64,000 nt of DNA from Iphione sp. A-MEVVRFRX5 (lineage: Eukaryota). Location of the stretch: NCBI GenBank assembly GCA_976226885.1, contig OZ320319.1, positions 19,282,001 to 19,346,000 of the forward strand, written 5' to 3'. The notes under the pieces were generated by a model. The model worked only from the letters and a program-made list of their open reading frames with translations, was not told the DNA's origin and searched no databases. The position numbers were made by a program, and so were the translations under genes. The first letter of the stretch is position 1, and each line of letters begins with the position of its first letter. Shown here in pieces: positions 14,111 to 64,000 of this stretch.

Positions 14111-15136
14111 AGTACGACTAAGCTTTCGGTTACGATTTGTCATGTAATCTTTCGTAATGCCCCCATGAAGGGTTGAAGTGTTGCCTGGGCGGTTTTGTGG
14201 GAGTGCAGATGTTGTGCGCTCCTGGTGAGCGGGAGGGACGCGGGTGGGAGCTGGAGTGCAGATGTCGCGCGCTCCTCGTGACCGAGAGTGACGCGGTTGT
14301 GTGTGCACAGTTGCGTAATGATGAGAGGTCCAGCGTGATTGACACGTTTATGGGAGGAGACGAGGGTTTAGGAGGATTTCTGGCGCTGGTTGAGCGACCG
14401 GAAGGAGTGACCCGGCTGTTTCAGGTTGAAGCGTCGTTGTGTTACTATGGTGATGAAGTGGAGGCTGTAACGGAAGGAAGTTAGGTGCGAGTGGAGGCCG
14501 TAGCGGTAGAAAAGTTCGCGGGACATTCAAAAGCAGTTGTTTTATCGGCGTTTTTGTTATACTTAATTGTACTGGTCTGTATTCTTTTTAAATGTTTACC
14601 GGCTCAAATTCAATTTTTTAACAAATCGAGTTAATAAACACTTCCAGTTATAAGTGAGAATTAAATATAGTTATTTGTGTGAAGTCGAAACTAGTTTCAA
14701 GTGATGAAAGAATTACAGTAGATGTTTGGAAAGGTTAGTTGAATTAAGGATCGTAGCAGCTGTGCGTGTACTGAACGATTTGGGTTAGTGTACGTGTTTA
14801 TTTTTGGTTCAGGGGAGGGAGAACTTGACTCTGACTGGTCCGGCCGAAACAGGTTGCAACAAGTAGGAGGGCTGCCGGGTATGCACGTAACCTTGGGGTG
14901 CGAGCCGAGGTGGATCCGTCGGCAGGTTGTTGTTCCATCCGGTAATGCGAATGATTACTTGCCTTGGGGACGAAAAATCCTCAAGGTATTTCATTGCCAT
15001 TTGGTGCTTGTTACAGTAAAAAGGGAGAAGTAGGAGTTTGTGAATGTTTCGGGAAGACTGTTGGTGTATGTAGTTTTGCAATGCATTAGCGGGTATGAAA
15101 CACAAATGACATCTATTGAAGCATTTCGATTCGTTA

Positions 15137-15219
15137 GCGCTGCCATCTGGTGTCAAAGTGGCTAACTATGGTGAAATGTCAAAGTGTCCACTTCGATTGG
15201 TCAGTGCTGCCATCTAGTG
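15137..15219 (-). promoter_or_regulatory. Two tandem CTCF-like motifs in a ~67-bp duplication
   Basis: Reverse complements are CACCAGATGGCAGCGC (15137-15152) and CACTAGATGGCAGC (15206-15219), matching the CTCF core. Confidence 0.5.
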
Positions 15220-17898
15220 TTGAAGTGGCGAACTATTGGGAAATGTCAAACTGTTTGATTTTTGCCAATGTTTGTTTGAAGTGAACTTTGCAAAGTTTGA
15301 GATAGGTTTTAACTTTATGGTTCCATTCGTGTGTGTTTGAATGTGGTGTATGTAATCGTTAATGTCTTATATTTGGTGTTGCAGGGTTTGCTAAAGAGGT
15401 ACCTCGGTTTGTATGTGAAAACGTTAGTAATAAGATGCTCGAGTTGGTAATTGAAGTAGATGTTAAGTGGTAATTGTGTTTCTGTTATGTTGTGTTCTAA
15501 TAGGATGTTAAGGTGTTTATATAGGTTAAGGACACAGTATAGTGTGTATTAGTTTCAAGATGAGTGTCATACGAGTGTCAGTTTGAGGGAGTGTTTTGTG
15601 TGATATTGTAAGTGCCTTGAGATATATTAAAAGCAGCAGGAGATATTGTGTACTAGTTTTTATTTGAATAAGTGCAGCACTTGGGGGATGATAGGAACAG
15701 AGCAGGTGTCGGTGACATCGAGATACTTTTCGATCGCTGGTACAAGTGTGTATGTTATGAGTCAACGTGGTTGGCGCCGGTATACGTTGTTTCTGAAACA
15801 TGGAAGTATAATCGAGGAGTAGTTTGTACAAGGTATAGTTGAATGGTAAAGCTAAAAATCAAATTACTCTAGATAATTGAAGTTTTGGTTTTCCCGTGTT
15901 TACTGGTAGGTTGTTGCAGTTATGCTAGGTTGTATCAGTTAAACTGGTGTTAGTTCGTCCATTTTCCACCAGAGTTGATTGAGTTAAGCTATCATTAGTT
16001 CGTTTATTCTCCACCAGACTCGATCGTGGTGTTTACGTTCATGAGGTGGAGGTTTGGCGGAGAGATTTAATAAAATGGCTTTATGTGTATTTGTGAGAAT
16101 ATGCAGTAGTGTAAGTTCTGTAGTGTATGTAAATAATGATTAAGATAACTCATAAAATGGAAAATATAAGTATTAACTGGAAAGTATATAGATCTCTGCA
16201 AATGAGTTCTAAAGACACCACTTGCATGTTCGGTTAAGTTGTATATACTGCTTTGTATGGTTCGGTTTGACATGTTTTCCGGGATGGCTTCTCCCTTGGT
16301 TCGTTGGAGGGCTGCCCGGACACTTAGTGTTTAAGGACGGATTCCACTTGGATTGCCCAGGTCCGGTAGTACTCTGCGTGGTGTTGCCGGCAATTTTTGT
16401 ATAGGGTCGCTGTGATTAGCGGCCTGACAATGAATTAAAGATAAACTTCTTAACTGCAGTGTTACACGTATGAAGTTGTAATATTGTGTACCTGCGTCGT
16501 GAATTACAGGCGCATAATGGAGATTGTCATTGAAGAATTATAAAGTAATTCTGTTTGTGTATCGCAAGGCCCTTGTGTTGTATTACAAAGGGCAAAATAT
16601 ATATGCAGAGGTGATTAACAATGGACGTAAACGAGTAAAGCAAGTTCGATGAAGTTGTACGTGTTCTGAAATTTGAATATTGTTTTAGACCATATTATAA
16701 ATGTTCAGAGTGAATTTGTGAATTGATATTGTGGTAGAATAGTGCAAGCCATAAGTGTGTAGCTGCGGCTATCTATTACAAGTGTGAGGTGATATGATGG
16801 ATGAATGTATAAAGTACAAGAATGCAATAAACGTTTTTCATGAAATTGTTGTATTTGTTGTTTGTTTAGTGTAGTTGTAAGCGGTACGTATTAGTCTGTA
16901 AATGGAATGTATGGAACATCACTTAACATATTTGAACATTGTTCGAGTTTAGTATGGAACATTACTTAATGTAATTGAAGATTGTTCGAGTCTAGTATTA
17001 TCGGAATAATGCATAAGTCGGCGTCAATTTTGTGTGAGTTTTGGGGTTTGGTGGGTAGAATTTGTCAATCACTCAAGGCGTTATCGATAAGGGATCATGG
17101 TGTTAAGGAACAAGAATGTAAATTAGGTTCGAGACTAATGGTTTGGTGGTTACATATACGTTTTGTTTTGGTGTTTTGTAAAATTGGTATGATGTAAATA
17201 TATAGGTTATGTGGCAGATATCAATAATTGGAAGTTTACTACAATGAAGTCAGTATGGGTTTTCATTGCAGATAACTAGATTATGAGGTTAATATAAAAG
17301 TCAAGTAAGCGTTAGGTTGGGAGTAAGTGTAAATGTGTAGTGTATTAACATTGACGGGATTGGTTTTTCGGTGAGAAGTCAACAATATGTTTAGAGTTGC
17401 AACCAGTGTATACAAGAAAGATTATAGCACGTGGAAGATGATGGTGTGAGGACATCTAATCGAGACGGCAGGAAATGTAGTCATCAGTAGCATCTTCAGT
17501 CATGCGATCGTCGGAGGTATGGTGCGGATTCAGGTTTCACAGCAATAAACTTTGTTTTGGAAGAAATAGTGTTTAGTTTATCTTTAAGTTATAGAAGGAA
17601 TTCGTAACGGAATTTTGGAAATTCTATTCTTTCTCAGCTAGTTGCATAATGCAATAAGTTATATACGATTTGTGTTTTAGTTTTTTTCAAGTGATTTGGT
17701 TTGGTTTTACTACTAATGGTAATATTCAAATAGATGTTTTAAAAATTGCAGATAGTGCGCCTTTTTGTTCTGGAAAACGTAGTGGTAAAGTTCCTTCTAA
17801 ATTCGCGTAGGCGCAGGAATGGTAATAGATAGAAGTAGCTGTAGTAGGCAAAGTAAGAGCTACAAGTCGTATTAGTTTTAGATCGGAATGACATATGG

Positions 17899-18628
17899 TA
17901 CTATGGCGTATTTCTAAGGTTTACATAAAACTGAGCAACGATGAAGTGGAAGATATGTGGTTTTTATTCAGAGAAACGAATTATTGAGGTTATTAGAATG
18001 GTTTTACATACAAAAAAACGTATACAGTAGTAGATGTTGGTGACACAGTTGTGTATAGTCGATACAGAATTTAAAGTAAGGCCTAAACAAAAAATATCTG
18101 TGTTTCCGGTAACCCGACCGACCCTTCATTAGACTCTATTGTGATATTTTTTTTTTTCTTGTTTTTTGAATAACTTTGGCATGAATAATGATAGAGACAT
18201 GTTCTATACCTCAAATTGTTCTTTAGTTTTCTGGCTTCCATTTGACATATGTTTTCTTAAAAATCTAACCAGTATAAGTAATATTGCCATACACATCTGT
18301 TGCTTTCAGCGTTCTTTTACAGTGAAAAATAAAGAAAAAAAAAATATGTGATGTACCGACCGACCCTGTATTTTTTTAGCCTGTTACCGGAAACACAGAA
18401 CTTTTTTTTGTAGGCCTAAGGCGTAGTACAAAGTACTATGGCGTATTTCTAAGGTTTACATAAAACTGAGTAAAGATGAAGTGGAAGATATGTGGTTTTT
18501 ATTCAGAAAAACGAATTATTGAGGTAATTAGAATGCTCTTACATACCAAAAACCGTATACAGTAATAGATGTTGGTGACATAGTTGTGTACAGTTGATAC
18601 AGAACTTAAAGTAAGACGTAGTACAAAG
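17899..18628. repeat. ~195-bp tandem duplication interrupted by a MITE
   Basis: tactatggcgtatttctaagg... occurs at 17899 and 18434. The units align end to end once 18080-18419 is removed. Confidence 0.9.
18080..18416. mobile_element. PIF/Harbinger-type MITE (337 bp)
   Basis: TIRs GGCCTA...TCTGTGTTTCCGGTAAC / GTTACCGGAAACACAGA...TAGGCC, with a TAA target-site duplication (18077-79, 18417-19). Confidence 0.85.
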
Positions 18629-20169
18629 AACAAATCAAGATGTAATACAATTGTTTGGCAATAAGTAGTAAAGCACATATATGCAACGCGTCAAGCGAAA
18701 CACCACATTTGACAACACCGGGAATAGAAACTTCAGTAGGTATTCAGTCCAACATTGAAACAGGGTTGGTTATGTTCAATATGTGATAAAGTACCAGTAG
18801 GTGCGGTTCAGTGTACGTCATTGGTTGGCGGTAGCGCCAGGCGTCAATTTAGTTTTATATGTATTAACCGAGGTGTGGGTTTGGGGGATAACTTGATAGT
18901 AATGTAATAGTATAAAATAGAGCTTGTCTAGTGGGAGTACGCGAGGTTGTGAACAGGTAATAGAAGGTGCTGAAACAGGAAAGTGGTCTCAGGGTCAGGC
19001 GTATTGCACCAAACCATTGTTAAGGAAGGATAGTGTTGTAACTCATTGAATGAATCGTATGTACATATCGTCCTTATGAAATAACAATATAAGAGACTCA
19101 GTAAACGGAGCATAGAGTACCGCAAACATATAGTATATATTTACAATCGGTAGAAAAGTTCGTTGGCAAGGTGTTGTGTGTGATATTTTACATGACACCA
19201 CCTATGCAGTGTTTCTATGTGTTTTTCAACTTCGCAGAAACTGAAAACAGTATTTGTAGTTCTTGGTGTACTAGATACTTGCTAGGAAGTCGTACTAAAT
19301 TTGGATACTACATTGTGTAATCGTTGGTCATCGTAGTTCAACTAAGTTTTAAGTGAGCTTAGTTTTGTTCACCATTGAATGAATTTTTGAATTGTACAGT
19401 GCATTCAAAGATGTATATGACGATATACTAAATATTCAGGGAGTATTAAGTATATTGAACAGTTTTAGAAGCTTCTTGAAGTCTAGAGTAGTTTTATAAG
19501 GTGGGGCGCATTTAGTTAGTAATAACAAGTGAGGTTACTGTTTTCACGTTGAAGGAATGTTTTTGTATTGTACAGTCTTTGCAAAACGTTTTTCAGAATA
19601 GAGTAAATACACAGGAAGTTGTAGTAAAGTGATTAAATACTATAAGCTGATACAAGTGGAGAGTGTTATTAGTGGGTTGGGTGATGTTCAATAGGTCGGT
19701 CGGTGAAGGGTAGTGTTGTTTTGCATGAATCAAAGTGTAAAAAATTACAGCGTTGCATAGGTTAGTATATAAGATAAAGTGTAAGGAGAGGGAGTAAAGG
19801 AGTCTGGCGAACATTTTCAGAAGGTGATAAGAAAGGCGTGAGGTGTTCGTGTGTGTTAGGCATAGAGTACCTAAGTGATGTTACAGTTAAGGATATTGGT
19901 GTTGTTTTCAATGTTGTGTATGTATTGTGTTTGAGGGGTTTCACCAGAAACAAAAAGTGAAGGAGGAGTTTGTGGAGTTAGGTTAACGGTAACCTGAAGC
20001 TACTCTCACTTGAAATAGGTTTGTATGAATTTGGTGGAGCAAAGGCCAAACTCAAATTGTGGGTAGTCGCGTCGCTAGTAATGAGTTGGAATAGTAGTCT
20101 TTGTATATATCTATATATAAATTCAGAGGGAAATTTTATAGGAAGCAATGTAGCAGCTTAGTGCAATAG

Positions 20170-21350
20170 TGTGTAAGACAGGAATAGGGTTCCAGTTTGG
20201 ATTCGGGATGATAGGTGGAGGCGCAACAACAGTTCCCTTTGTTTTGGTCGAATCAATAAAAGTTGATCGATATATAGGCAGGAATTGGGTCTTGTTTGGA
20301 AACGGGATGATAGGTGGAAGCGGAACAACAGTTGTTGTTGTATTGGTCGAATCAATAAGAGTTGATCGATATATAGATAGGAACCGGGTTCCAGTTTGGA
20401 AAGGTGATGATACGTGTAAGGGCAACAACAGTTGTTTTTGTATTGTGTTGAATTAACAAATGTTGACAGATATAGTCTTTTGTCATGGTGGGTGTGTTTG
20501 TTGGTTATTGTAGTTGAACAAAGTCTTAAGTGAACTTAGTTTTGTTCACCATTGAATGAATTTCTTTGTGTCATACACTGTTTTCAAAGTTGTCCAGAAG
20601 AGATAGTAAATATACAGGGAGTATTAAGAAGTAGAAGGAGAGGCTCCAACATTGGATGACTGACCTGTCGAATCAATAAGAGTTAATAGATATATAGACA
20701 GGAATACGGTTCCAGTTTGGAAATGGGATGATAGGTTGAAGCCAGGAACAGTAGTAGGAGAGGCCCCAACATTGGATGACTGTGAACTTAGTTTTGTTCA
20801 CCATTGAATGAATTTCTTTGTGTTGTACACTGCTTTCAAAGTTGTCAAGAAGAGATAGTAGATACATAGAGAGTATTAAGAGGTAGAAGGAGTGGCCCCA
20901 ACATTGGATGACTGACCTGTCTAATCAATAAAAGTTGATAGATATATAGACAGGAATACGGTTCCAGTTTGGAAATGGGATGATAGGTTGAAGCCAGCAA
21001 CAGTAGAAGGAGAGGCCCCAACACTGGGTGACTGTAAACTTAGTTTTGTTCACCATTGAATGAATTTCTTTGTGTTGTACACTGTTTTCAAAGTTGTCAA
21101 GAAGAGTTAGTAAATATACAGAGAGTATTAAGAAGTCAAATGAGAGGCTCCAACATTGGAAGACTGCATGTGCTGAACCAATAAAAGTTGACAGATATAT
21201 AGACGGGAATTGGGTTCCAGTTTGGAAATGGGATGGTAGGTGGAAGTGTAGCAACAGTTGGTGCTCAAGTCGAATCAATAAAAAATGATAGATATACCTT
21301 GTTGTCCGTGCGGGTGTGTAAGCGTTGGTCATTGACTTGAAGTAATTTTA
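20170..21350. repeat. Composite tandem array: ~99-bp units, then ~252-bp higher-order units
   Basis: aggaat..ggttccagtttgg occurs at ~20180, 20280, 20379, then at 20700, 20952, 21204 interleaved with a ttagttttgttcaccattg block. Confidence 0.9.
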
Positions 21351-21377
21351 AGTGGGTTTAGTTTTGTTCAAAGTTGA

Positions 21378-22145
21378 ATGAAGTTTTTGTATTGTACAGT
21401 GTTTCTAACGTTGTACATGAAGATATAGTAAATATATAGAGAGTATTAAGAAGTAGAAGGAGAGGTCCCAATATTGGAAGACTGCATGCATTTAGTTTGC
21501 TGGACTCTATTGCACATACAATGGGACCCCTAATGTTAAGAACTACGCTCATTGTAGAGTTTTTACAAGAATAAGACCACAATGTGGAGGAGTGGACCAG
21601 TTTGCTGAAAAGGAGCAGTGGACAGGAAGTCAATGAAGTTTTTGTATTGTACAGTGTTTCTAACGTTGTACATGAAGATATAGTAAATATATAGAGAGTT
21701 TTAAGAAGTAGAAGGAGAGGTCCCAACATTGGAAGACTGCATGCATTTAGTTTGCTGCACTCTATTGCACATACAATGGGACTTCTAATGTTGACAACTA
21801 TGCTCATTGTAGAGTTTTTACAAGAAGAAGACCACAATGTGGAAGAGTGGACCAGTTTGCTGAAAAGGAGCAGTGGACAGGAAGTCAATGAAGTTTTTGT
21901 ATTGTACAGTGTTTCTAACGTTGTACATGAAGATATAGTAAATATATAGGGAGTATTAAGAAGTAGAAGGAGAGGTCCCAACATTGGAAGACTGCATGCA
22001 TTTAGTCTGCTGCACTCTATTGCACATACAATGAGACTTGTTGACAAGTACGCTCATTGTAGAGTTTTTACAAGAAGAAGACCACAATGTGGAGGAGTGG
22101 ACCAGTTTGCTGAAAAGGAGCAGTGGACAGGAAGTCAAGTGGAAG
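21378..22145. repeat. 255-bp tandem repeat, ~3 copies
   Basis: gaagtcaatgaag occurs at 21626 and 21881. The ORF track shows an 85-aa period. Confidence 0.92.
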
Positions 22146-23601
22146 TCAGTTGGACGGACTGAAATAGAAGGAAAGGTCCCAACATTGGACGACTGCATGC
22201 AATTCGTTAATTGCACTGTACTTTACATCCAATGGGACTTTCAACCTTGACAATTTTACTTTCGAGAGCTTTTACAAGTAGAAGACCATACCAGGAGCAG
22301 TATGCTAACATTTTCCATTTAATACAATGGGATTTTGAACCTTGACAACTTTTGTTTTGTAGAGTTTCACAAGAAGAAGACCACAATGTGACAGAGTGGA
22401 AGAGTTTTTGAAAAAGGAGTACAGGATGCCAACAACTCATAGTACGTTGACAGAAAGATTGTAAGCATTAAGTGAGTTTGCACTGTACTGTATATACAAT
22501 GGGACGTCTAACTTTGAAAGTTTCAATTTTTAGGTAATTGTTTCTTAACTATGTGAGTCGGACAATTTGCATACATGGCGTCTTTTTGACTTGCTGTATT
22601 ATATCAGGGACGAAGAATTATTACTGAAGTCAAAGAAGGACCACGTTGTGGAAGAGTCGGCTAAAATAGAAGGAGCAGACATCGATGTGGAGGAGTCAGT
22701 TGGTCACAAAGAGGTAGAACATATGGACGTAGACCATAATGTGGAAGAGTCGGCTGAAAAAGGAGCTGCAGACATTCATGTGTAGGAGTGACTTGCTCAG
22801 AAAGAGGGGGCAGCAGACTTTGATTAGGAGTAGTTGTTGGTATAAAGAAGAAGAATACTCTCATGTGGAAGAATCAACTTGTGGAAGGCGGATTGTGTTT
22901 ATTTTATGGGTACTTATGTGTTAAGTGTTTGTGTTTGTGGGTTCCGGGTTTTGTCAATGAAAGATTTACCATTTGCCCAACAGTCTGGTGTAGTACACAT
23001 GACATATATGTGAAAATCTACCAAGAGAAACCATGAAAAACAGCGGAAATATATGTGGTGAAGAAGAATTTGTTCGTTAGAAAGTGTAGTAGGAAGATGG
23101 TTATGGGTAGACCTGTTTAAGTATATGTGTGTAAGTTTTTGGGGTGTTACTGTTGGCGAACAAATAGTATAAGAGATGGTATGTACACCAATAACTGGCA
23201 GTTTGCTTAATTAACCAGTATCGGTTTGTTTTTGTTACATGTTGTAGTTGTGTTTAACTCATTGGATACTTTTTTGTTTTTATCTAGGGAGTGCGGTGGG
23301 TTAAGGATTTGTTGTCAAAGAAAGATTTTACTATCGGCTAAAAGATTCATGTAAAACATACGATACATATCTGAAGATTTACCAGGAGAAACCACGAAAA
23401 ACAGTGGTAATTATTGTTCAAGAAGAACTTGTATGTTACAAAGTTTAGTAGGAGAATGGTTATGGGTACCTTTGTTAAGTGTATTTGTGTATTTATGGTG
23501 TACTACATTGGAAAACAACTTTTAAAACAAGGTATGTACACAAAGTCACCTGGTAATATATACTACGAAGGCAGTCGGTCGTGATAAAATAGTTACGCTT
23601 C

Positions 23602-23982
23602 ACTGTGTCACATGTTTGAGTTTTGTCAAACTCATCGCACACATTCTTGTTCCAATGTAGGGAGTGTGCGAGGATGTGTAAGCAGCAGATATAATTGAGG
23701 GACATGTTGTGTGTATGGATGTTTAGTGTTGTAGAATAGTTACTGTGTCACATGTTCGAGTTTTGTCGAACTCATCGCACATATTCCTGTTCGAATCGAG
23801 GGAGTGTGCGAGGATGTGTAAGCAGTAGATATAATTGTTGAGGGACATGTTGTGTGTATGGATGTTTAGTGTTGTAGAATAGTTACTGTGTCACATGTTC
23901 GAGTTTTGTCGAACTCATCGCACACATTCTGTTCGAATCGAGGGAGTGTGCGAGGATGTGTAAGTAGTAGATATAATTGTGG
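23602..23982. repeat. ~140-bp tandem repeat, ~2.7 copies, with internal hairpins
   Basis: actgtgtcacatg occurs at 23602, 23742 and 23885. Confidence 0.92.
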
Positions 23983-24369
23983 AATAGGTCGTGTGCTGTA
24001 TGTTTCATGTAGTAAAAAGTATGTTTCATGGTATGTATACTGAATACAGCAGTTGATAGGTAGGAAATAGAGGTTATGCAAGGATATTGTATGTTAAGTA
24101 GTTTTGTTGTGAGGACAAAAGGTTTCTGTATTATTATACTTTATGGGTTTTAAGGTGTTTGCTGGTGTTTCTAGTGTAGTATAGAAATGAGGTGAGGACG
24201 GCAAGTTAAATGCAATTCAAATGAAGACAATGATATTTTATATAATTTGTGGAATTTCGAACGAAGTGTAGGCACGAAGTTGTTCAGGACGAGAAGAAGG
24301 CTGTAATGGATATGAATGAACTGGCAGAACACCATTTATATTAGTAAAAGTATTAAGCAAAATATGACC

Positions 24370-25420: not shown

Positions 25421-25494
25421 TTGAGTGTATTCATGAGAGAAAAAATAGCTGTGAAGGTAGCCCAAGAATGTGAGTTGGATTATTACAGCATTCT

Positions 25495-29770: not shown

Positions 29771-29897
29771 TGTGTGTTCTTATTGTATAATGTGAGCGTA
29801 ACTGACTAGTATTCAAGTTGGTGTATTAAAATGAAGTTTCCGTCAATCTTATGATGGTGGTCGTATAGTGTGTCGAGTTGTTGTACGTACACGAATT

Positions 29898-53734: not shown

Positions 53735-55160
53735 TCAGCATTCATCTTCCCAAGCTAAATCGATAGGAGGATTTCGAGAACATGAAGCCGAAAGCCGGGT
53801 TTCGAACGACTTTTGTGCATCTTTTATAGCCGTGATGTCTGTTTCAACATTAGAGAGCGACTGCTTTGTTTTGTCGTGGCCATTTAGTAAATAATTAATA
53901 GCGTTATGGTGTTCGATCGCCTCTTGGTTCATCTGTTGTATTTGGCTTTCTAAGTAGCTGTTTTTTTTCTGAAGATTCAATACCGTCATCCGCAAGTGAA
54001 GAACGTCCGTTGATAAGGTTTGTACAAGTTCGTTAAGTAAACGAACGTTGTCATCTGCAAATACATACAATAAACCTGTAAATTGTTTGCTGTATTTCAA
54101 AATTAGGAAAAAAATTAACAATGTATAACAATTTTGCTGCACTAACAACTGTGACAACTGTTAGGTGTAGTTAACTGGTAAGGATCAATCGCAGGTTACA
54201 AGAAACTTGGCTTCAATGTTTTAGTTCTTGGCGTTTGAATGTGATAAAACTTTTACTTTAGTTGTTAGAGATTGCCTTATTTAAGACGTTTAATATTTGT
54301 GCAAGTTATTTTCAGGTCCATCTTATTTACTTAAAGAAAATTAGAACTAGACAACTCCTACATGAATAACTGTATGTTGGCTATGGTCGAAGAAGTATTA
54401 CAAAATCATGTTCACATTGAAATATAACTTACAGTTTGTGCAATTTCTCGCTATGGACGTTGTCACTGTGATTTGCATTTGGTCGCTTGATGCACTATCT
54501 GAAAAGATGAATACCAATATGCATAATAGTCAAGTATTTATGTGTGAATCATAGTATTTACTTAAACACTTAATAGATAATAATAAGTGTTAGTTTCACT
54601 AAATTTAAACTTCTGCAGAAAAATAGTACGTTTTTTTTCAGTTTATAATTAGATATTCGGCAACAAATTGACATGATAAGTTCTAAAGGGTAAATCTCAA
54701 GATAACATGTCTTAGTCGTATGTACTCTGTCTTAGTTTGATCAATTCTGAGTGCTTGAACAAGTCTATCGATCTTAGTTTACGGAACAGACTAACAAAAA
54801 CAATAAACAAGTATTTCAATAATTTTGGAATTATGAATGTATGAGTTAGACAATCTATTTCGAGTGTACAATTCGTCTCAGGCAAATAGTAAATGATGTT
54901 GTTGTCGTAGTCGACATGACAGGAAGTCTTCATCATAAAACACTACTACATTAAATAACAACCGGTGTCGTTGGCTACTGTGGATTATTTCGAGAGCAAT
55001 CGAAACGGAAGAATTCTTTATGGTTCTAAAGAAACTATGATGTTGTATTGCGTCTAGTATTCATCACATACTTACGTGTAGAATCTGCGTGGGTTGTTGC
55101 GTTAACTGGTGGGCTGACATAAACTGGAGTAGGATGTACTATAGTGCTTCTGTCATCCAT
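53735..55160 (-). CDS. Coiled-coil cargo gene Y, 134 aa; exons 55160-55076 and 54054-53735
   Basis: ATG...ACAC|gtaagt phase 1 joins atttgcag|AT phase 1, total 405 nt. Paralogous to gene X. Confidence 0.72.
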
Positions 55161-55800
55161 GTCGTTGAGGTGTTCTTTTAAGAAGACCGATTAGTGAATT
55201 TAATTAATCCGCTAATGTACAATTGTCTAACGTATCACAGTTAAGAATATGTGTCAATTGACGCGTGGAGTCAAACACTAGCTACGCAACTGAGGTGGTA
55301 CTCGAAGTCCAACTTTCACATAGGGTAGCTGAAGAGTCCTCGAATCCTATTGGATAAAGATGGACCACTCATAAGCCGGTTTTACAGGTAGTGTCGAAGC
55401 CGGTAGTGTGGACAGTATTCATGGTGATACGTGCTAAACACTTGCCCTATGACGTCATACCATTAGCAAGAGAACATTTGTCATTATATATAAAATGTTT
55501 ATATGCGTGTTTCCTTTAAAATCTTTATTTCAAATATTGTACATTGGATTCAAAAGACAAATACATGTTTTGTTAAATTAGTTTATTCTTATTCTGAAGA
55601 AAAAGGTGAAATAACAATTGAGGAATTTGGTAAGGAAAAATTTGTTCTATTTGACAGCGGGCATGTACGTTTGCTGCTTTTGTGCATATATATAGAGAAA
55701 TGTTAAATACATAAACTTTATGAGTTTATACTTTTAATTTTCAACATGCAGGCCGTAGCGTTAGATTTTCACACAAAACTTAGTTGGTGTTCTCAATATA

Positions 55801-56050
55801 CAGGGGTGAGGCCAAGAGTGGTCGCAGGGTATCAGGAGCGTCAATGGGGACGTCTTTGATGGTCTCTCACCCTGGAGGGGTGAGGCTGAGAGTGGTCGCG
55901 GGCGTCAACTTCGACGACTTTGATGTTCCTCACACCGTGGAGGGGTTGGCCGGGGTGGTCGCGGGCGTCAACGAGGACATCTCTGATTTTCCTCGCACTT
56001 TGGAGAGGGTCGGCCGGCAGTGGTCGGGTCGTCAACGGTGACGTCTTTGA
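55801..56050. repeat. GC-rich ~63-74-bp tandem repeat, 4 copies
   Basis: gtggtcg(c)gggcgtcaa cores at 55818, 55892, 55955 and 56020. Confidence 0.85.
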
Positions 56051-56587
56051 TACATTTACTTGAATAAATGGCAATTACTACCTATTACCTATCCCTACCT
56101 ATTATTATTGATTTGTAGAGAGAGAGAGAAAGGGATATGATTTCAAGCCCAGACCCCTCCTAAATTACTTTGCGACCGTATTCAGAATTCCGACCATTTT
56201 GGGCCGACCCAAGTGATGGTCGGAAAGTGAGTTTCTCCTGTACATCAATTACGCGTTATACTTAATATTTCCCAGTAGGAACTTGGAGTATTTTAAACTG
56301 ACAATTAGTGTGTGATAAGTTGACAGACTTCATATACATATTATAAATTATGAAACTTTCGTTGCAGAACTAGAATATTGAGAATGCACTGTCAGTACTA
56401 CAAATAGCTACAAAGCATAAAGAAAATTTTAAGTATAAGACGAATGGTTAAAAAGCTTTGTTGTTAACATTTTCTGCATAAATATTGGAATAGGTATTTT
56501 GTTTATGTGTATGTTATAGAAGTACTTAGAAGAAACAATTCATAACACAAAAAGACTGTTCAGTGTTAAGTCTGGAATGTTTATTTG

Positions 56588-58553
56588 TCATTTCTTTTCC
56601 CGGCGGCAACAAACACTGTCAATAAAGAGTTGTAATTCATGTAGCCAGTGATGTATGATATAACGAGGAATTTCATCATCACGCTTAAGTAGTTCATGTC
56701 TAAATATGATGTTGTTTTCTTCTACACCATTTAATGGTAAACAAGTGTCCGGGGTGGTGTAGCCATTTTTATAGTTCATAGTTATTGCTAAACTATTTTT
56801 GGTTACAATGTGGTGGTTGAGTTTGATCTGTTCTCGTGACTTCGGGTGTCCAATTTGCATACCATGGATAGGAAGGAAAATTACATGCTGCATTTTTGAG
56901 GTTACAAGTGTATTGACAATAGTGGTCATGTTGATCCAGGCATCATGCTTCAAGGCTGTAGCTGACGAATACGTAAGTTTGTATTTGTCTTGAAATATCG
57001 ATACTAGATCATCAAGGCCCAAGTATACTAATGTAATATTGGTGTCAATCATTTGTAGCCGGTGAATTTGTTTAATGACATCTTCAATGCGTCCACTAGG
57101 AAAGATTATAGTGGTCCAGTCATACAAGTGCCCAAGAGTGTTCTCCACAATTCGGCTGAAGTCTTGGCCTCGCGTGTCTGTCACCATTGTTACTTTCGGT
57201 TTTGTGTCCATCTGCAGAAAGCGAATTTTTTTTGTATAGTACATAATATTTTGTTAATGAAATCAACAGTTTGTTCAATTTGTAACAAACGGGAAGAATT
57301 GAAATAAGCAATAGTTATATCTCTACCGACATATAGGTTACTTCTACACAATCCATGGAATGCAGCTAAACAACGCCATTATATAATACAACAAAACTGT
57401 ACGTTCTGATTGAATTTCAAATAATGTGATATTTGTTAGATAGAAGCAAATATTTCTGAAATTCCTCCCATCACTATCACTAAAAAGATATGAAGTATAT
57501 ATTTTTTTCATTAAGAACACTAAATGTATGATTCGGCCGTATATAGTTCTACAAAAACAGCGTCAGTTGAATTACAACTTGTACTTATTTATTACAACCA
57601 TTTCGTTATTATAGCAGTTCTATAAAGATTCTTGTAACTTATCACACTGTCGTGGCTGTCAAGGTGGCGGCGTGGTTTTATATAGCCATTATCGAATAGC
57701 ATAACTGAGTGTGAACGTGGCGAGTAGTGGTTTCTCATTGAATACAGGTAATGTTTGTTATACACTTTGTGGTCGGTGCGACATGTATGTTCAATGGTAA
57801 AAACAAAAACTGAAACAAGTCGTTAGTAATCGTAGGTACATATGTTGTCGAGTAGTAATGAACTATCTCTGGATCGAAATTTATCATATACGTTTACAAA
57901 AAGTTTGCTTAAGGACAGCTGGTAGAGAACATGTATCCAAATCAGAGCTGGGCACCCAACAAAAAGTTGTCGCGTTTTTTAACCTCCTTGTCGTAAAAAT
58001 ACAGTTAGTTCGGTACTGAACCAGTGGAAAACAAAAGAGGGTTGTCGCATTCTTTTCAGTCTTTGACGCATGTTTTTAGCGAAATGCGACAGGGTGTCCA
58101 GTCCTGCAAATTCTCTGACATTGTAGTGTTGGTGAAAACCAATGCGTTTTACCGAACTACTGTTTGGATAAAAGTGTTCATTGGTATTTAGTGGTAATAC
58201 GAATTGTTGTTTTCTAACTAATTTTGTTCATTGGAAAATTAATCTTCTGTTGTAAGTTTCCAGGAGTGATTAAACTTACTTTAATTCAATTAAATGCAAA
58301 TAGTATTTACCTTGTAATGACAATATGCTCGCTTAACGTCTTCCTGGTAGGAATTTCGTTTGGTCCAACTGAAGTAGTGTTTGTAGCAGCACGACGTTGA
58401 TACATCTACTGGGCTTTGCGTGTCTCCTACTGATACAGTATGCTGTGCTGATTCGTTGAATCTTACACGCACGTTGTGCGCATGCGCTTGAAACTTGTTA
58501 GAGAATTTAAGAAAAGTATTGGCAGCTAAATTGAGTCTTGTATCGATGTTCAT
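56588..58553 (-). CDS. SGNH/GDSL-fold protein, probably catalytically inactive; exons 58553-58311 (tentative) and 57211-56588
   Basis: Block-like motifs VTDTRG (DSRG type, Ser to Thr), FPSG, YLGLDD and RDDEIP (no DxxH His). AAG|gtaaat and ctgcag|ATG are both phase 0. Confidence 0.6.
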
Positions 58554-59940
58554 TTTACAATATGTTAATCAATGTATCAATATAAGTTTTGAGTCGACTG
58601 TTGACCATAGTTTTGTATTAGTTAATTCTGTAAATGAACGAGTTTACAATGTTTCTTTAACTTGACTGTGCAAAGTTTTAGATTTGTATGTTCAAAACAA
58701 GTATGATACTACTTTTGCAGTCATAGGCGAACAAGATTCTCTATTACAGAACTGGGCATCTAAAACAAAGTTGTTTCAATTATGGCGTATTTCTTAAGGT
58801 CTCTGTCGCAAATTCACCAACTAGTGAAGAGAAAAAGAAAGTTGTCGCATTTCTTAGCATCTCTGTGTCATGTTTTTTACGAAATGCGACAGGTTGCCCA
58901 CCTCTATATTACTTTACCAAATATATACTCGGTCTAAGCCGGAGGTAGCCTGACAGTCACGGATGACATATATCGCTCTTTTTCTCAAGAAAGTGTAGTA
59001 TTCTTACGCTTCTTCGTATTGGTACGTAGAAGTGAAACTTATATAGATGGGCTAGTACTTGAACGTATCTGTCCTGGTAGATTGTAATTTTTACTGCTTC
59101 TACTTTCTCTACAATACACTTTTACTAAACAACCAGTCCAAACGTTAAAACGTGTGAGTTATATGGATGTTCGTACTTGATATACTCGTTGTGTTTCAAG
59201 TGCTATGGAAGTTTGTGTCGAAAAAATTGTCATTTAACATACAACTGGTTTTATAGCAATGACGGGTATTAACGTCGAGCAAGAGCGCGATAAGAACTGA
59301 AATGGACGACAAATGTCGCAATTATCGACTAAAGAATTACAACTACAACCACGTTTAACTAATGTGCAATATTGTACTTTTAAGCACGGTATAAATATCT
59401 AAAGCCACACAAAAATATGTTTTAAGGAATAGGATCAATGAGAGTGTCGTTTCAGTGCAAGCGTGATTTAGAAATGCTTCTGTTTATGTAAAATGTGAGT
59501 TTTACAAATATAGTTACAATAGTTGTTGAGTATGTAGGAATAAATTTTTAGTCTCCCATTATACTGAACAGTTTCGAGCTATAACAGATAATTGTCTTAA
59601 ATAGTTTTCAGAATTGCCTTTGTGCATGTAATCTACGGCAGTTTGACCTGCAGTATATTGTATATTGTTAGGTACTGATGTAAAAGGTGGTATAAAAATG
59701 ACAAAACGCTTATTACTGCAACTTTCAAAAATATTGGTATTGTTATCATTGGTCTTAGACAAAATAGTTTTAAAAAACGACAAACTCATTAGGTACGTTC
59801 ATACTATTTATTTACTAAACTATCAAACAATGATAATTATTGAACGTATTTTATGTAAGTTGAACTTAAACAAACTTAACTAGCACATAACAGCTACATT
59901 CACATGAACATTTTGTAATACATTGTTCTTTGTTTACAAG

Positions 59941-60185
59941 TGTACAAATACGCCTCAAATCAAAATTGTCCAGTACTGTAGCTTTATACAACCACATGAA
60001 GTTTAACTAAAGTATAGTCGCGAGACATCAAAGTAAAACATGTGGTTTGTAGAACGTTGTGTACAAATAGACCTAAATCGACGTTTTGAAGTATTGTAGC
60101 TTTACAGCGACCACATGAAGTTTAACTAAAGTACACTCGTAAGACATCATAGTAAAATATGTAGTTTACAGAGCCTGAGATGCAA
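59941..60185. repeat. ~119-bp tandem duplication
   Basis: tgtacaaata...gtagcttta...accacatgaagtttaactaaagta occurs twice. Confidence 0.85.
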
Positions 60186-60525
60186 AACACTCGACTTCTG
60201 AATTTATACACGATAACAATGAAACCTTTAAATTAAACTTTAAATTATAGTGAAAAGCATTTTCTACGTGTACGCAAACTTATTAAAAATGATGTTTGGT
60301 AGTAGGTATTATTATTGAGAACTGTCAAAAACATTATATTAACAAAGATCTAATTGTTTGGCTGACAAACTCCTGGTTACAATTGAAAAGTCTTGTGCTT
60401 ATGGTTCACCTAAATACTATAACAAAGCTTGACGTAACAAATTTATATTCAAAGTAAACTCCTTCATAGAGGTTGATGACAAACCAGTTCTTGGTACAAT
60501 GTACAGTTTATGTCGGGACTGTACG

Positions 60526-61050
60526 ACAGCAGAACACTACTACTAGTGAAAGTAGATTACGGTTATTTATGTTGAATACAAACAACTACGCTAACAACTT
60601 ATTTCTAAACATAAGTGACTAAATCATATTTTCTATTTTTTCTACTTCTGTGAAAAAAATGCACCGTTTCATATACCATTGTTAGGTTTATCACGCATGA
60701 ATGTTTGTTGTAACCAAATCTTTTATTGGTATTGTAAAACACGACATAGTAAACATGTTCTGTGGTATTAAAATTATTATACGGCAACAGAACAGTACTA
60801 CCAATGAAACTAACTTATGGTTATACATGTTAGAAACAAACAACTACGCTAACAAATGATCTATAAACACATATACTAAAACTTATTTCTACTTTATCAA
60901 CCTTTGTGGAAAAATGCACCGTTTCATATATCTTTGATAAGATTTATTACGCTTTGAATGTTTCTTGTAACCAACTCAATTAGCGGTATCTTAGAGCACG
61001 GAATAGTAAAACATGTTCTGTAGTATGTTGTTGCATCGACCAAAACAACT
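60526..61050. repeat. ~260-bp diverged tandem duplication
   Basis: acaaacaactacgctaac and aaaatgcaccgtttcatata each occur twice, ~259 nt apart. Confidence 0.85.
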
Positions 61051-61083
61051 GAGCATGTTTCTGTCAAAAACTCAACAAACAAC

Positions 61084-62022
61084 TTACTTTTTGATTTGTT
61101 CAACAACAAAGTCAATCGCTTTCTGAACTTCAGTCATTTGCTGTTGCAACATTTCTGTTTTGTGTGCCACTTGTAACAGTCCTTGTTCAAACCCATTTAC
61201 TTTCTTTAGTGCATCAGAAACTTCTTTATGAAGAACATTAACTTCGGCGTGTACAACGGTTAATCTAGTGGTCAGTATCGCTGCTTGCTTGTCTGTACAA
61301 CCCCTATGGTCGATCTGAGTTTGCGCTATTTGAGCTTGCAGTGTGTTTAGACTTTGGTGTAAAAGTGTTATTCTTTTATCAATTGATTCACTTTTCATAT
61401 CTTTTAGTTCGAGAATTCGTTTGGCATTCTGTAAAACACATACTTGGAGCTGTTTTATATGTTGTTGTGCTGTATAAAGCGAATGTGCAGATTTGTCACT
61501 TTTATCACGTCTTGGTGACTTGTGATATGTAACTTCTTCCAGTTGTGCTGGTGGTTGACATGGCTTTTGAAATAGTCGTTTAGGAATCCAACTAGAAACT
61601 AAGTTTTTGTTCTGTTCCTCTACCACTTTTTCCAGTACATTGCCACCATTGGAACTACTATGTGTAGATGGACTTTGATTGTCATCACCTAGCTTAACAG
61701 TTTCTACACTTTCACTAATTGGTATCAAAGTGTATACTATTTCATCTTCACCTGCTATCATTGACTTTTGCTGTTCACCTGAAACAGTGCTTGTTGGTGT
61801 CCTCGAATGCTTTTCATTGCTTATACTTCTAAATAGTTGACTAGTTCCTGAAGTACTAGCGCCTGGTTCAGGCGTTTCAGAAGATTGCTGTGAATGTATG
61901 CAAACCGGACTATCGGATCTAATCACTTGTCGTGATAGTGGTACGACTTCTGTAGTTTCTGGACCACTACTTCCTTCTGTATCTTGTTCGTACAAAATAG
62001 CAGTCTGCTCAGTCATCTTTGC
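61084..62022 (-). CDS. Cargo gene W exon: Ser/Thr-rich disordered N-half plus long coiled coil (~310 aa)
   Basis: ctgcag|GCAAAGATG acceptor and a 310-codon ORF. It ends either at TAA or at donor AA|gtaagt (61087). Confidence 0.7.
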   Translation of the reverse strand, partial: AKMTEQTAILYEQDTEGSSGPETTEVVPLSRQVIRSDSPVCIHSQQSSETPEPGASTSGTSQLFRSISNEKHSRTPTSTVSGEQQKSMIAGEDEIVYTLIPISESVETVKLGDDNQSPSTHSSSNGGNVLEKVVEEQNKNLVSSWIPKRLFQKPCQPPAQLEEVTYHKSPRRDKSDKSAHSLYTAQQHIKQLQVCVLQNAKRILELKDMKSESIDKRITLLHQSLNTLQAQIAQTQIDHRGCTDKQAAILTTRLTVVHAEVNVLHKEVSDALKKVNGFEQGLLQVAHKTEMLQQQMTEVQKAIDFVVEQIKK

Positions 62023-62336
62023 CTGCAGTTCATCCGAAATAGGGAACCCTAGTTCAACGGAAAAATAAGTTTGCGGTAGTATTTAGTATGTGGTGTATGT
62101 ACAACATACATGTAGATATATCACAACAGTTTACAATCGGTCAGAACAATTCCTATTGAGAAACTAATATTTTATACATGAACTTGTATACTTTTTTTTT
62201 AATACAGTATTTACACTGGAAGATTACAGTCATGTGCTTATTGTGATCCAGTTTGTTCTAACTTTGTTGGTTCACTATGATACGTACAGATGATAAATTA
62301 TTCTATGGTATGTATGAGCATTAATGATGATGAATC

Positions 62337-62843
62337 TTATGTACGTGTGAATCTGGTAATACAATTGCATGTTGCCATCTGGTCTTTTATCACTTTGCTG
62401 TGAAATAGATTTGTGTCATATGTATATTGTAGTTTGCGAACCGTCAATATGTACCCACCTTCCGCATCCATAACTTTTTTCCATTGCAGCCATTCTTGTG
62501 CTACTTGTTCATCAGTTTTAAACTTCGACCGTCTCGGATAAGTAGGCGGTAGTCCTACTTCTGAAAGAAAACATTTTTAAAACAATACGTTTCGACTACT
62601 TCACAGTAATGTAGAGTTCATTCAATGATTTATTTTCAAATACAATCAAGTTAAACACCTGCCAACTTCTATTTGGAATTTTAAAACCAGAATTCATCTT
62701 TGAAAAACTTTACTATTGGACACAGTACCTGCTCTTCTCTCTTCACGTCTGGCAGCAGCCATTAGTCGGTTGTGGCGTTTATATGCTTCGTATCGTTCAA
62801 ATGCTCCTGGTTTTTTAGTTTTTACCGGATGCTTTTTTGGCAT
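62337..62843 (-). CDS. Small two-exon basic protein, 112 aa; exons 62843-62729 and 62560-62337
   Basis: caccATG context. GCAG|gtactg phase 1 joins tttctttcag|AA. Translation MPKKHPVKTKKPGAFERYEAYKRHNRL...QEWLQWKKV...; no family recognised. Confidence 0.6.
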
Positions 62844-64000
62844 GGTGTTGTACTAAAAATCAAATAAAATATCCAATTAAGAAACATATTAACTGTAATA
62901 TATAACAACAGAGTTCACATTAGTTCAAACTGTATATTCTGTTAGATAAATCCTTTCTTTACAAAACAGGTAAACGTTCATTTAGCTTCTCAGTCTTTAT
63001 CCTAAAGTTATTCCCACGCTAAGTTAAACCGTTAAGAACCGTATGAATGCATGAACTACTGCTGCGCTGGAACCGTATCATATATTAGTATTCTATAGTA
63101 TAAAGTGGACAGTGTAGTGATTTACGAAATTAACAACTTTCGATTTACTAAGTCACAAATACAAACTACTTTTATTGCTGAACGACGTTTCTAGGTTATA
63201 CGGCATGTAATCACTAGAAAACACAAATTTCACCTGATTTAAACACAGGTGTGGATTAAGCATCGATACCAGTGCTACTAGAAATGAGCTATAGTGCATG
63301 TTATACATCAATTTCGACGTGCGGTTGAACCGCTTGAAATAATATTAAGAATATTGTTAATTGACACGTATCTTCATCAACTGTTTCACAACTGTATAAT
63401 AAAAAGACTAAATATATGTGTTCAGATGCATTTCAAATTGAGATTTCTAGTAACCTATACGTACATTTCAAAACTTAAACTAAACCATTCAAATAATAGA
63501 TTTGAACAAAATAGTAAAATACTTACTTACTAGTCACAAACGAGTGAAGATATGTGTACACAGACGTACAACTGTTCAACACTTAATGACCACAAACTGG
63601 TTAAGTGTTCTGTCTTGTAGGGCGCGCGTACTAGATGGAGATTAAAGGCGTGGTTAGTCTTACAACTACTTGAATATTCATGACTTTAACTGACCAATCA
63701 CAAAACAAGAAGTGAGCACGGGTTTATGTAACACGCCTACAATTCGTCTGTAAAGGATGATGTTGACCATCTGGCCTTTTATGACCTTCGGTTCTGCTTG
63801 GTTGCATAGACAAAGGTAGTGATACTCCACTGTATGTAGTAAGAAGGGCTATTTAGTCAGGGTCCACGTCCGGACTTCCTTAAACGACGTTTTATATGTG
63901 TAGTGTAATTCTGTCAAACAGTTGGACTGTTGAAGGGGTGTTACTGCGTGGTGGTTCCCGGAAGTCTCTTGATTAAAATGTTCAAAAAATGCCGCTACTG

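Follow-up and report, generated by a model that had tools for sequence, protein, structure and literature searches.

A mutational strand asymmetry that reverses sign along an 80-kb Helentron/Helitron2 transposon of Iphione sp.

Results

The strand skew in the DNA analyzed here belongs to an 80-kb Helentron/Helitron2 (HLE2) rolling-circle transposon, family A. The window, i.e., the whole 64,000-nucleotide stretch from Iphione sp., holds only the left 50 kb of this element, which starts at 13,975/13,976 and extends to ~30 kb beyond the window end. We favor, with some hesitation, a reading in which a C>T-type footprint loads the plus strand over the left two thirds of the element and the minus strand on the right, each strand probably being single-stranded near its own 5' end while the element replicates. 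The observations behind this reading are the boundaries of the skew, its linear gradient, a substitution spectrum that is mirrored between left and right, and the lack of asymmetry in the two youngest tips. The window contains the following features.

13976..64000, plus strand: left 50 kb of the 80-kb family A element, from comparison with copies C13, C1 and C4
13976..14032, plus strand: left terminus, 5' asymmetric terminal inverted repeat and 5' hairpin (fold and motif positions)
13975..45000, plus strand: zone of strong G over C excess (2-kb skew 0.20-0.48), including degenerate tandem arrays
18079..18417, no strand: nested MITE that the four copies share; it served as a mutation reporter
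28058..28508, no strand: nested MITE without skew
32088..32396, minus strand: coiled-coil ORF, paralogue of 53,738-54,160 (30% identity, E 3e-10)
35167..41577, plus strand: intact RepHel ORF of 2,136 aa (Pfam and family comparison)
42178..44414, plus strand: four exons of one or more genes, conserved in families B, D and E
45001..64000, plus strand: zone of declining skew in which current substitutions are still C>T on the plus strand
48921..62576, minus strand: cluster of conserved ORFs (48,921-49,535; 53,738-54,160; 56,591-57,253; 61,087-62,082) and an exon (62,340-62,576)

Identity, ends and genes of the element

Family A has four copies, 98-99.8% identical, at loci C15 (the window copy), C13, C1 and C4. 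The C13 copy is 99.8% identical to the window copy over 13,972-93,995, with unrelated flanks beyond, and the right end falls at window-equivalent position 93,993 (G000:C15:19,375,993). The 5' terminal inverted repeat (13,977-13,989) pairs with a reverse copy at 14,020-14,032 to give the 5' hairpin. The right 30 kb contains the zero crossing of the skew, an arm with partial homology to family F, a truncated relative, and the 3' end structures, i.e., an inverted repeat at 93,954, a 3' hairpin and a terminal CTTG followed by T. Recurrence of the 13-bp repeat of position 13,977 at 93,954 and hairpins predicted by DNA folding at both ends are as expected of Helentrons. In all 20 loci, the left terminus was preceded by TNNT, with a T directly before CAATGG, and T followed CTTG at all 10 right ends of long elements seen. 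As judged from these junctions, the element appears to insert between T and T without target-site duplication, as Helentron/Helitron2 elements do. Helitron1 elements are marked by 5'-TC, CTRR-3', no inverted repeats and insertion between A and T; the CTTG end, inverted repeats and T^T site rule out a canonical Helitron1. Among the loci examined, two of 16 short non-autonomous copies were complete, and these are likely to be end-derivatives, hence not independent.

RepHel comprises a herpes-tegument-like deubiquitinase, DUF6570, an HUH Rep, a PIF1 helicase and a predicted AP-type endonuclease. Pfam matches above cut-off were Helitron_like_N (1e-28), PIF1 (5e-23) and DUF6570 (2e-18). The C-terminal endonuclease matched Exo_endo_phos under the Pfam cut-off (E 0.0016), with its motifs kept in 5/5 family copies; such a C-terminal domain, as predicted here, is the mark of the Helentron variant. 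The closest RepHel proteins show 42-47% identity across residues 700-1200; the named ones come from bivalves, a hemichordate, a sea cucumber and a nemertean, and two further ones are labelled as bivalve-symbiont MAGs. A metagenome scan with a four-sequence Rep alignment gave 64 pattern matches, 0 of them confirmed. The plus-strand exons at 42178..44414 had no convincing match in Pfam (three of the four exons) or PDB (one exon); from their position, we suspect a candidate RPA/OB-fold protein. No polymerase domain was found among the subset of ORFs scanned.

In the available parts of the reports, Helentron/Helitron2 elements are described with asymmetric terminal inverted repeats, hairpins, T/T insertion and a RepHel with DUF6570 and endonuclease (PMC3627910, PMC4067079, PMC11417382, PMC5148889), and a tegument-type deubiquitinase has also been reported in them (PMC9741609). 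Family A shares the terminal repeats, both hairpins, the T/T site, the RepHel domains and the deubiquitinase; it differs in its 80-kb length, several conserved extra genes and a sign-reversing mutational gradient, of which we found no description in the literature searched.

GC skew along the element

Over the whole element, GC skew declines in a straight line from +0.46 to -0.24 (R2 0.89 over 40 bins), crossing zero at ~66.5 kb and halting at both element ends. The linear fit beats one step (logL gain 547 vs 442), and the gradient is unchanged when exons are removed. Cumulative skew climbs and then drops, with its peak at 67,477. Within the window, positions 13,975-64,000 hold 11,547 G and 6,992 C (GC skew +0.246, AT skew -0.034), and the first four 10-kb blocks have skews of 0.34, 0.36, 0.26 and 0.20. 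The left flank (1-13,974) holds 2,850 G and 3,060 C (skew -0.036), and 51 host 10-kb windows had a mean of 0.019 (sd 0.067, range -0.09 to +0.25). Skew is 0.01 in the kb before the element start and 0.33 in the kb after. The left likelihood change point, 13,498, is ~480 bp too early because a G-rich host dehydrogenase exon lies directly upstream; the right change point is 93,981 vs a true end of 93,993. A host replication-origin context was ruled out, as the pattern goes with the element to four loci and ends at its termini.

The original prediction had placed a boundary near 13.95 kb and a skew outside host DNA, and both are borne out, as are its spot base counts (6/6 exact). Its claim that the skew runs over 14130..64000 is right for the left, where the skew is strong, but not as far as 64,000, as 59,001-64,000 is balanced (G 857, C 862; skew 0.00); the G20/C9 spot at 63,901 that it had taken as a sign of skew is local noise. 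Past the window end the skew is negative, reaching -0.2 to -0.3. The nested MITEs do lack skew, as it had proposed (-0.10 vs flanks of 0.34, and 0.02 vs 0.40), although their inverted-repeat arms force part of this. Skew over genes of both orientations holds for substitutions and for the DNA between minus-strand genes (0.21, 0.20, 0.15, 0.04), but was not confirmed at four-fold sites, where plus genes have skews of +0.31 (RepHel, G138/C72) and +0.35, and minus genes -0.03 (G36/C38 pooled over four ORFs) and -0.27 (G11/C19 in a fifth).

Polarized substitutions and reporters

The longest resolved branch, C1, carries 222 polarized changes over 65,693 sites, vs 85 in its sister lineage. C>T and G>A numbered 44/11 left of the crossing and 7/18 right of it (Fisher 1.3e-5; right side alone, p 0.004). 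C>G and G>C changed likewise (11/2 left, 1/4 right), as did all changes to G/T vs those to C/A (121/42 left, 21/38 right; Fisher 2.3e-7). The C>T rate on the plus strand fell from 12.35 to 0 per 1,000 C along the element (p 1e-7). G>A was nearly absent at 20-50 kb (one event in ~6,000 G sites) and appeared further right. In an independent, unpolarized comparison with C4, the rate of C<>T per C divided by that of G<>A per G was 4.27, 2.17, 1.64, 1.24 and 0.56, left to right. The youngest tip branches, C15 and C13, were symmetric (18/16, 7/5 and 13/13, 9/7).

The MITE at 18079..18417 showed C>T 4 and G>A 0, and 9/10 of its derived changes were to G or T on the plus strand. The MITE at 28,058 was excluded as a reporter, with no full-length dispersed copies among those listed. 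An insertion on the right gave G>A 17/C>T 6 and G>C 8/C>G 1; its control copies, only ~82% identical to it, are tilted in this direction too (G>A 19/C>T 11). Left tandem arrays had C>T at 17 of 100 C vs G>A at 11 of 194 G (p 0.0045), and asymmetry in the right arrays was not significant (p 0.26). APOBEC/AID-type signs were sought as a 5' preference, which was not found (A 7.5, C 8.4, G 4.7, T 6.0 per 1,000), and as clustering, likewise not found among 64 events (gap sd 858 vs mean 887; gaps <100 bp 9 vs 5.8 expected).

These data support the proposed link between the skew and replication of the element itself. The plus strand had been named as the exposed strand, and this stands for the left two thirds, which are C>T-loaded; in the right third it is the minus strand that is loaded. 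The proposed A>G deamination found no counterpart, as polarized A>G and T>C changes show no strand asymmetry (20/16 left, 9/4 right; 34 vs 26 overall; symmetric model best).

Sister families in the same genome

The sign reversal is firm only in family A, and sister families have a weak gradient or none. Families B, C, D and E are as long as A and have the right end in common. The compositional slopes of B, C and D (-0.024 to -0.030 per 10 kb) fall within the range of 10 host stretches (-0.054 to +0.049); that of E is 0.000, its left end not being found within 153 kb. Tips of family B have a left excess (31/12) without reversal on the right (21/16), and the sole family B comparison that reverses is the unpolarized one of B with B11 (0.60, p 0.03). 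At Rep four-fold sites, families B and D have a skew of +0.02 and family A one of +0.31. Across A, B, D and E, these sites are 31-60% identical and too saturated to polarize by parsimony.

Discussion

Under the favored reading, RepHel would make a nick at the left end of the plus strand, from which its PIF1 helicase would peel that strand rightwards. The peeled strand would be turned double-stranded from its 3' (right) end, so that its left end would wait longest. Re-synthesis of the donor or circle may keep pace early and then, less certainly, lag or stall about two thirds along, which could leave the minus-strand template bare on the right; reuse of donors and circles would make the changes heritable. 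The chemistry could be cytosine deamination (C>T, C>G) with translesion bypass of other lesions, giving G or T on the exposed strand. The spectrum carries neither an adenine-deamination signal nor a deaminase motif.

Seven models were compared by AIC on three data sets. Only one, with plus-strand exposure linear and minus-strand exposure a late step, was within 2 AIC units of the best in all three. A constant lag (both strands linear) was 11-16 AIC units worse, and a late stall therefore has to be assumed; a smooth power-law rise of minus-strand exposure did better than linear but stayed behind a step or hinge. The stall is fitted at positions from 0.63 to 0.83, depending on the data set. Besides the sister families, the right tandem arrays and the leaning control copies, further findings weigh against the favored reading: the measured spectrum predicts a left AT skew of -0.40 vs the observed -0.03; the reversal comes mainly from one family and one polarized branch, which has 25 events of the C>T/G>A type right of the crossing; and four-fold sites of minus genes lack a plus-strand G excess.

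Purified Helraiser (Helitron1) transposase made junctions without cellular proteins, 4/26 of them from the minus strand, and Helraiser donors are reused and its dsDNA circles re-replicated (PMC5876387). Its plus strand is likewise nicked and peeled from the left end; the single fork proposed for it, with leading and lagging synthesis, would, however, be expected to give one sign of asymmetry along the element, whereas that of family A is graded and reverses. In break-induced replication, the leading-strand template is reported to be mutagenic ssDNA (PMC9262586). For the vertebrate mtDNA heavy strand, the available part of the report describes a C>T rate linear with position, read as single-stranded time (PMC8565317). 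Family A has a similar C>T gradient on the displaced strand; in mtDNA as described there, A>G also follows a gradient and a single strand is loaded, whereas family A has symmetric A>G, asymmetric transversions to G/T and a loaded strand that switches. Rolling-circle plasmids also have replication-linked GC skew on an HUH replicon, but their cumulative skew, in the part of the study available, rises throughout with one sign (PMC3269016), whereas that of family A rises and then falls.

Synthesis might instead displace strands from both ends, with forks meeting at ~0.65-0.75 of the length, and we regard this as possible but unlikely. The left nick would be on the plus strand; on the right, a minus-strand nick or a target-primed start would come from Rep, acting at the second inverted repeat, or from the endonuclease domain. 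Each old strand would be exposed on its own side only, as in adenovirus-type linear replicons. A shared-switch hinge is best on five substitution classes and a shared step on C>T plus C>G, and the late appearance of G>A, the cumulative-skew peak and the same 13-nt repeat near the 5' end of both strands, with both ends reading CAA inward, all agree. Against this, the hinge falls 11.8 AIC units behind when C>T is fitted by itself, families B and D have the same kind of ends without clear reversal, and Helraiser cuts only a plus-strand junction oligonucleotide (PMC5876387). The model fits do not separate displacement from both ends from late uncoupling. As a speculative generalization, which we doubt to the same degree, the inverted repeats of Helitron2/Helentron would license a second, minus-strand initiation at the right end, so that these elements copy from both ends and the skew gradient maps the fork meeting point. 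Grigoriev reportedly described in 1998 a linear, sign-changing skew in adenovirus, which arises as each strand is displaced starting at its 5' end. Compared with such adenovirus/Polinton-type replicons, family A shares the linear sign change between termini, as reported for adenovirus, but they have a protein-primed polymerase and long terminal inverted repeats, whereas family A has only the 13-bp asymmetric repeat and no polymerase in the ORFs scanned; adenovirus is a linear virus genome and family A an integrated HUH transposon.

Bidirectional replication of a dsDNA circle, with variable termination and an origin that lies at the joined ends or close to them, we consider improbable. The lagging-strand template would be the plus strand in the left part and the minus strand in the right part, and averaged termination would give a linear skew, as in the eukaryotic N-domain concept. 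The signs agree, one branch fits a step while composition is linear, joined ends would give a jump from -0.24 to +0.46, and re-replicated circles are known from Helraiser. The 4- to 6-fold C>T asymmetry, however, is well above what coupled eukaryotic forks without a deaminase give, which to our knowledge is far below that level; the deaminase motif is lacking, and the element codes for a nickase-helicase, not an origin-binding initiator.

Transcription-associated asymmetry, with the non-template strand of plus genes on the left and minus genes on the right deaminating, would match the left-to-right change in gene orientation and the four-fold skew in plus but not minus genes. It is nonetheless very improbable: genes turn minus at 48.9 kb, yet across the minus-gene cluster, through 62.7 kb, we counted C>T 13 and G>A 0 on the plus strand, which argues against transcription as the cause and agrees with the original prediction that the asymmetry does not track gene direction. 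In addition, chromosome-resting copies mutate symmetrically, and the orthologous Rep gene is unskewed in B and D.

Single-strandedness of the plus strand alone, with C>T and A>G fading toward the 3' end, fits the fall in C>T from ~12 per 1,000 C to ~0 and the family B tips, but is already contradicted in family A and scarcely credible there. It yields neither negative skew nor the right-side G>A excess, has no A>G asymmetry to draw on and is 31-37 AIC units behind the best two-strand model, so the weaker skew after ~46 kb, which leads into a reversal of sign, is not just shorter exposure of one strand. Just as unlikely, and largely refuted by the polarized substitutions, is a gradient that arose by accident from a mosaic history, with G-rich tandem arrays to the left and a C-rich arm captured to the right. 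Family A is a mosaic: homology to the last exons of B/D stops at 62.9 kb, and by 70.4 kb an F-like arm has begun, on either side of the zero crossing. A lagging history probably smooths composition; in B/D, for example, the 61-kb gene sits only 4-5 kb before the right end. R2 is, however, still 0.87-0.89 with repeats and exons masked, and recent substitutions and nested repeats show asymmetry still arising. A search near the crossing turned up neither a relic terminal repeat nor a 3' hairpin.

We know of no strand-tracking experiment for Helitron2/Helentron. The strand-level Helitron model considered here comes from one reconstructed Helitron1 (PMC5876387); family A adds a strand- and position-resolved mutation record in a natural, recently active element, i.e., of which strand was bare, where and for how long. 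This record indicates that the minus strand is exposed as well, which a single coupled fork does not predict. Displacement from both ends, if true, would mean converging strand-displacement forks, like those of a linear virus, and a eukaryotic transposition mode distinct from the one-strand Helitron1 model. The approach is a cheap genomic assay, applicable to any long Helitron of which at least three copies exist, and tells apart mutations acquired during replication and those acquired in the chromosome, as in the sister lineages with 222 vs 85 changes. The autonomous elements found here measure 73-80 kb, and family A, at 80 kb, is ~2x the 39 kb of maize Helitrons, the largest size in a 2019 review (PMC6431247).

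Results

Searches of the element's own genome (G000) placed its left end at 13,975/6 and found four copies, named here by contig: C15 (the window copy), C13, C1 and C4. C15 and C13 align at 99.8% identity as far as window-equivalent 93,995 (beyond 64,000, coordinates are the G000:C15 position minus 19,282,000); the element is thus 80 kb long, with 62% of it inside the window. A 13-bp asymmetric repeat, a hairpin at each end and a T/T insertion site match the Helitron2-type ends described in the accessible parts of PMC3627910, PMC11417382, PMC4067079 and PMC5148889. On every feature tested, the element (family A) is an HLE2 member, with the following genes:

35,167-41,577: RepHel ORF, 2,136 aa, with tegument-type deubiquitinase, DUF6570, Helitron Rep, PIF1 and a weak AP-endonuclease match
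35-44 kb, plus strand: conserved genes
32, 49, 54, 57, 61-62 and 80 kb, minus strand: conserved genes

The last AP-type endonuclease motif, usually SDH, reads SYH at the Rep C-terminus (~41,530-41,550) in 5/5 family copies; endonuclease activity may be changed. Between copies, the Rep ORF carries 26 synonymous and 26 non-synonymous changes; as neutral change would make the latter roughly three times more numerous, the family A lineages were likely active. Helentrons are known to carry the tegument-type domain as a passenger (PMC9741609). A non-autonomous 840-bp element with ends of the same kind lies 4 kb upstream (9,165-10,005), and the end motif gave about 1,000 first-look candidates genome-wide.

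Across 13,975-64,000 the plus strand contains G 11,547 and C 6,992 (skew +0.246), and the flank upstream of 13,975 contains G 2,850 and C 3,060 (-0.036). Six spot G/C counts in the original prediction were all exact on recount, and the skew does not extend into host DNA, as it had held. Its boundary near 13.95 kb coincides with the element's left end, the likelihood change point falling at 13,498. The skew does not reach 64,000 as claimed: mostly 0.2-0.5 per kb at 14-45 kb, it declines afterwards to 0.00 at 59-64 kb, where the last spot was noise. The observation is therefore partly confirmed, and is extended here. Host 10-kb windows from fetched flanks (n=51) had a skew sd of 0.067 and a maximum of 0.25.

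After tandem repeats and host-like insertions were masked (9,353 of 80,021 bases), GC skew fell from +0.46 to -0.24 along the element, with a slope of -0.088 per 10 kb (R2 0.89 over 40 bins; 0.87 without exons), change points at 13,498 and 93,981, and a zero at 0.66 of element length, about 66.5 kb. A line gained more log-likelihood than a single step (547 vs 442). Ten host stretches of 30-80 kb gave slopes of -0.054 to +0.049 with R2 <=0.26. AT skew showed a small gradient in the opposite direction (-0.07 to +0.05, p 0.001). Two short non-autonomous loci, L012 (0.23/0.07/-0.29 by thirds) and L020 (0.07/0.09/-0.32), repeat the plus-to-minus pattern on a small scale, probably as a legacy of long-element ends.

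The skew had also been claimed to hold over genes of both directions. This was so for polarised changes at 48.9-62.7 kb (C>T 13, G>A 0) and for intergenic DNA among the minus genes, where skew stays positive while declining, but not for the minus genes' four-fold sites (G36/C38 in four ORFs; G11/C19 in a fifth, all small counts). In sister families the fifth gene is found 4-5 kb from the right end, and it may therefore retain an older composition. A conserved 221-aa minus-strand ORF at 56,591-57,253 appears SGNH/GDSL esterase-like by eye; a Pfam search with it gave no match.

Substitutions were polarised with C4 as outgroup over 65,693 of 80,021 sites, dropping tandem repeats, gap-adjacent columns and clustered mismatches and setting aside eight conflicting sites. 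Changes numbered 222 on C1, 46 on C15, 42 on C13 and 39 on the C15+C13 internal branch, with 757 unpolarised for C4. The left/right cut, element position 52,500, came from the composition fit.

Plus-strand changes on the C1 branch
C>T/G>A: left 44/11 (6.9 vs 1.1 per 1,000; p 5e-10), right 7/18 (p 0.004)
C>G/G>C: left 11/2, right 1/4
G>T/C>A: left 10/1, right 1/3
T>G/A>C: left 22/7, right 0/4
A>T/T>A: left 14/5, right 3/5
A>G/T>C: left 20/16, right 9/4

The short internal branch leaned the same way (18/10 and 3/8, p 0.07), and the C15 and C13 tips had symmetric spectra. In the C4 comparison the ratio of C<>T per C to G<>A per G fell monotonically from 4.27 to 0.56, a measure that is unpolarised and so partly sensitive to base composition. 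Nested repeats, each set against 10 dispersed copies, served as reporters: 9/10 derived changes in a left MITE were to G/T, and a right insertion had G>A 17, C>T 6, G>C 8 and C>G 1, although its controls also leaned towards G>A (19, against C>T 11). Tandem arrays agreed on the left (p 0.0045), but gave no significant difference on the right (p 0.26). The substitutions showed neither sequence-motif preference nor clustering, and single C>T changes no dipyrimidine preference. Four tandem CC>TT changes on C1 (22,976; 46,253; 51,821; window-equivalent 80,433) all fall on the locally loaded strand, with ~0.05 expected from independent events; a UV or oxidative origin is possible. About a dozen further CC/TT-type doublets occur in the C4 comparison.

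Seven exposure models were fitted to the C1 and internal branches with three class sets (C>T; C>T and C>G; five classes).

dAIC of exposure models under the three class sets
Plus-only fading: 31, 34, 37
Both strands linear: 14, 16, 12
Shared step: 1.9, 0, 7.5
Shared hinge: 11.8, 6.0, 0
Plus linear with late minus step: 0, 1.5, 0.8

Minus-strand loading is therefore needed, confined to roughly the right third. An earlier interpretation, exposure of a displaced plus strand fading toward its 3' end with C>T and A>G deamination, survives in part: plus-only fading lies 31-37 dAIC behind the best model, and A>G is near symmetric.

Sister families, with Rep identities of 57-81% among best matches, have the same ends as A where B and C (one family, 74-76 kb) and D (73 kb) are concerned. 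Their slopes (-0.024 to -0.030) lie within the host range, and E has a slope of 0.000 across 98 kb (left end not found); A is about three times stronger, at a guess through more replication rounds per unit time. Rep four-fold skew was +0.31 in A, +0.02 in B, +0.03 in C, +0.02 in D and +0.17 in E. Unpolarised ratios in B, read from left to right, were 3.1, 2.1, 1.3, 0.9 and 1.1, and its polarised tips went from 31/12 to 21/16, a left excess without clear reversal. Over the final 8 kb, skew is for the most part negative in B, C, D and E; a truncated relative, F, is strongly negative over 18 kb.

Ends are shared and accessory genes shuffled across this giant Helentron clade of 73-80 kb (E possibly at least 98 kb), with loci at G000:C1:173.5 Mb, C10:33.9 Mb, C10:78.3 Mb, C11:15.4 Mb, C22:48.1 Mb and C2:18.4 Mb; three minus-strand genes, for example, precede Rep in B/D but follow it in A.

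Discussion

The asymmetry is element-bound, graded, sign-reversing and missing from the youngest tips, and we infer single-strand exposure as its cause. The loaded-strand spectrum (C>T, C>G, G>T, A>T, T>G) fits deamination with bypass of abasic or oxidised bases; polymerase error bias is another possible source. At equilibrium, the spectrum as measured would give the left side a GC skew of +0.59 and an AT skew of -0.40, whereas the observed values are +0.23 and -0.03. Either the sequence is thus still a long way from equilibrium, or the estimates for the A/T classes are poor.

Common to the three leading readings is that both strands were exposed during the element's own replication, which we consider probable. 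We tentatively rank highest, at somewhat under even chances, a strand that would be peeled from the left end, with coupling that would fail late along the element. Two-ended initiation is a less likely account; the fit does not tell converging forks apart from late uncoupling. The switch position is also where a body resembling B/D (homologous up to 62.9 kb) joins an arm resembling F (from 70.4 kb onwards), and a relic terminus sought at this join was not found. Bidirectional circle replication seems improbable. In the portions of PMC5876387 available, it is the plus strand that undergoes nicking and transposition, both donors and circles can serve again, and purified enzyme forms junctions with no cellular proteins present; the authors propose a fork that combines leading and lagging synthesis.

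Adenovirus and N-domains offer parallels to the gradient. Exposure gradients in mtDNA (PMC8565317) and one-sign skew in rolling-circle plasmids (PMC3269016) are known. Full-text searches, with subscription journals, Repbase reports and supplements outside their scope, turned up, among the top matches listed, no paper that describes strand skew or a mutational gradient for Helitrons; the accessible parts of a strand-asymmetry review (PMC10030826) and a wheat Helitron paper (PMC13286980) contain nothing on either. The maize Helitron maximum is 39 kb in the accessible part of one review (PMC6431247), and the HELIANO supplementary tables could list similar-sized elements.

CpG observed/expected is 0.79 for the whole element and 0.55 for host flanks, being near 1 across much of the element and 0.2-0.5 in some tandem arrays, which suggests little time spent methylated. 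The C4 copy contains a 29-kb insertion (element positions 26,522-55,641) that shows no skew gradient. It has terminal inverted repeats and a duplication resembling TTAGG, and its putative nuclease ORF we take, from its motif, to be Harbinger-like. The host flank holds a long short-chain dehydrogenase exon (13,200-13,871, plus strand; adh_short_C2, E 5e-47) ending ~100 bp upstream of the insertion site, a Death-domain ORF (4,567-5,247, minus strand) and, at 5,684-6,874, a 300-bp identical duplication with 199-bp inverted arms.
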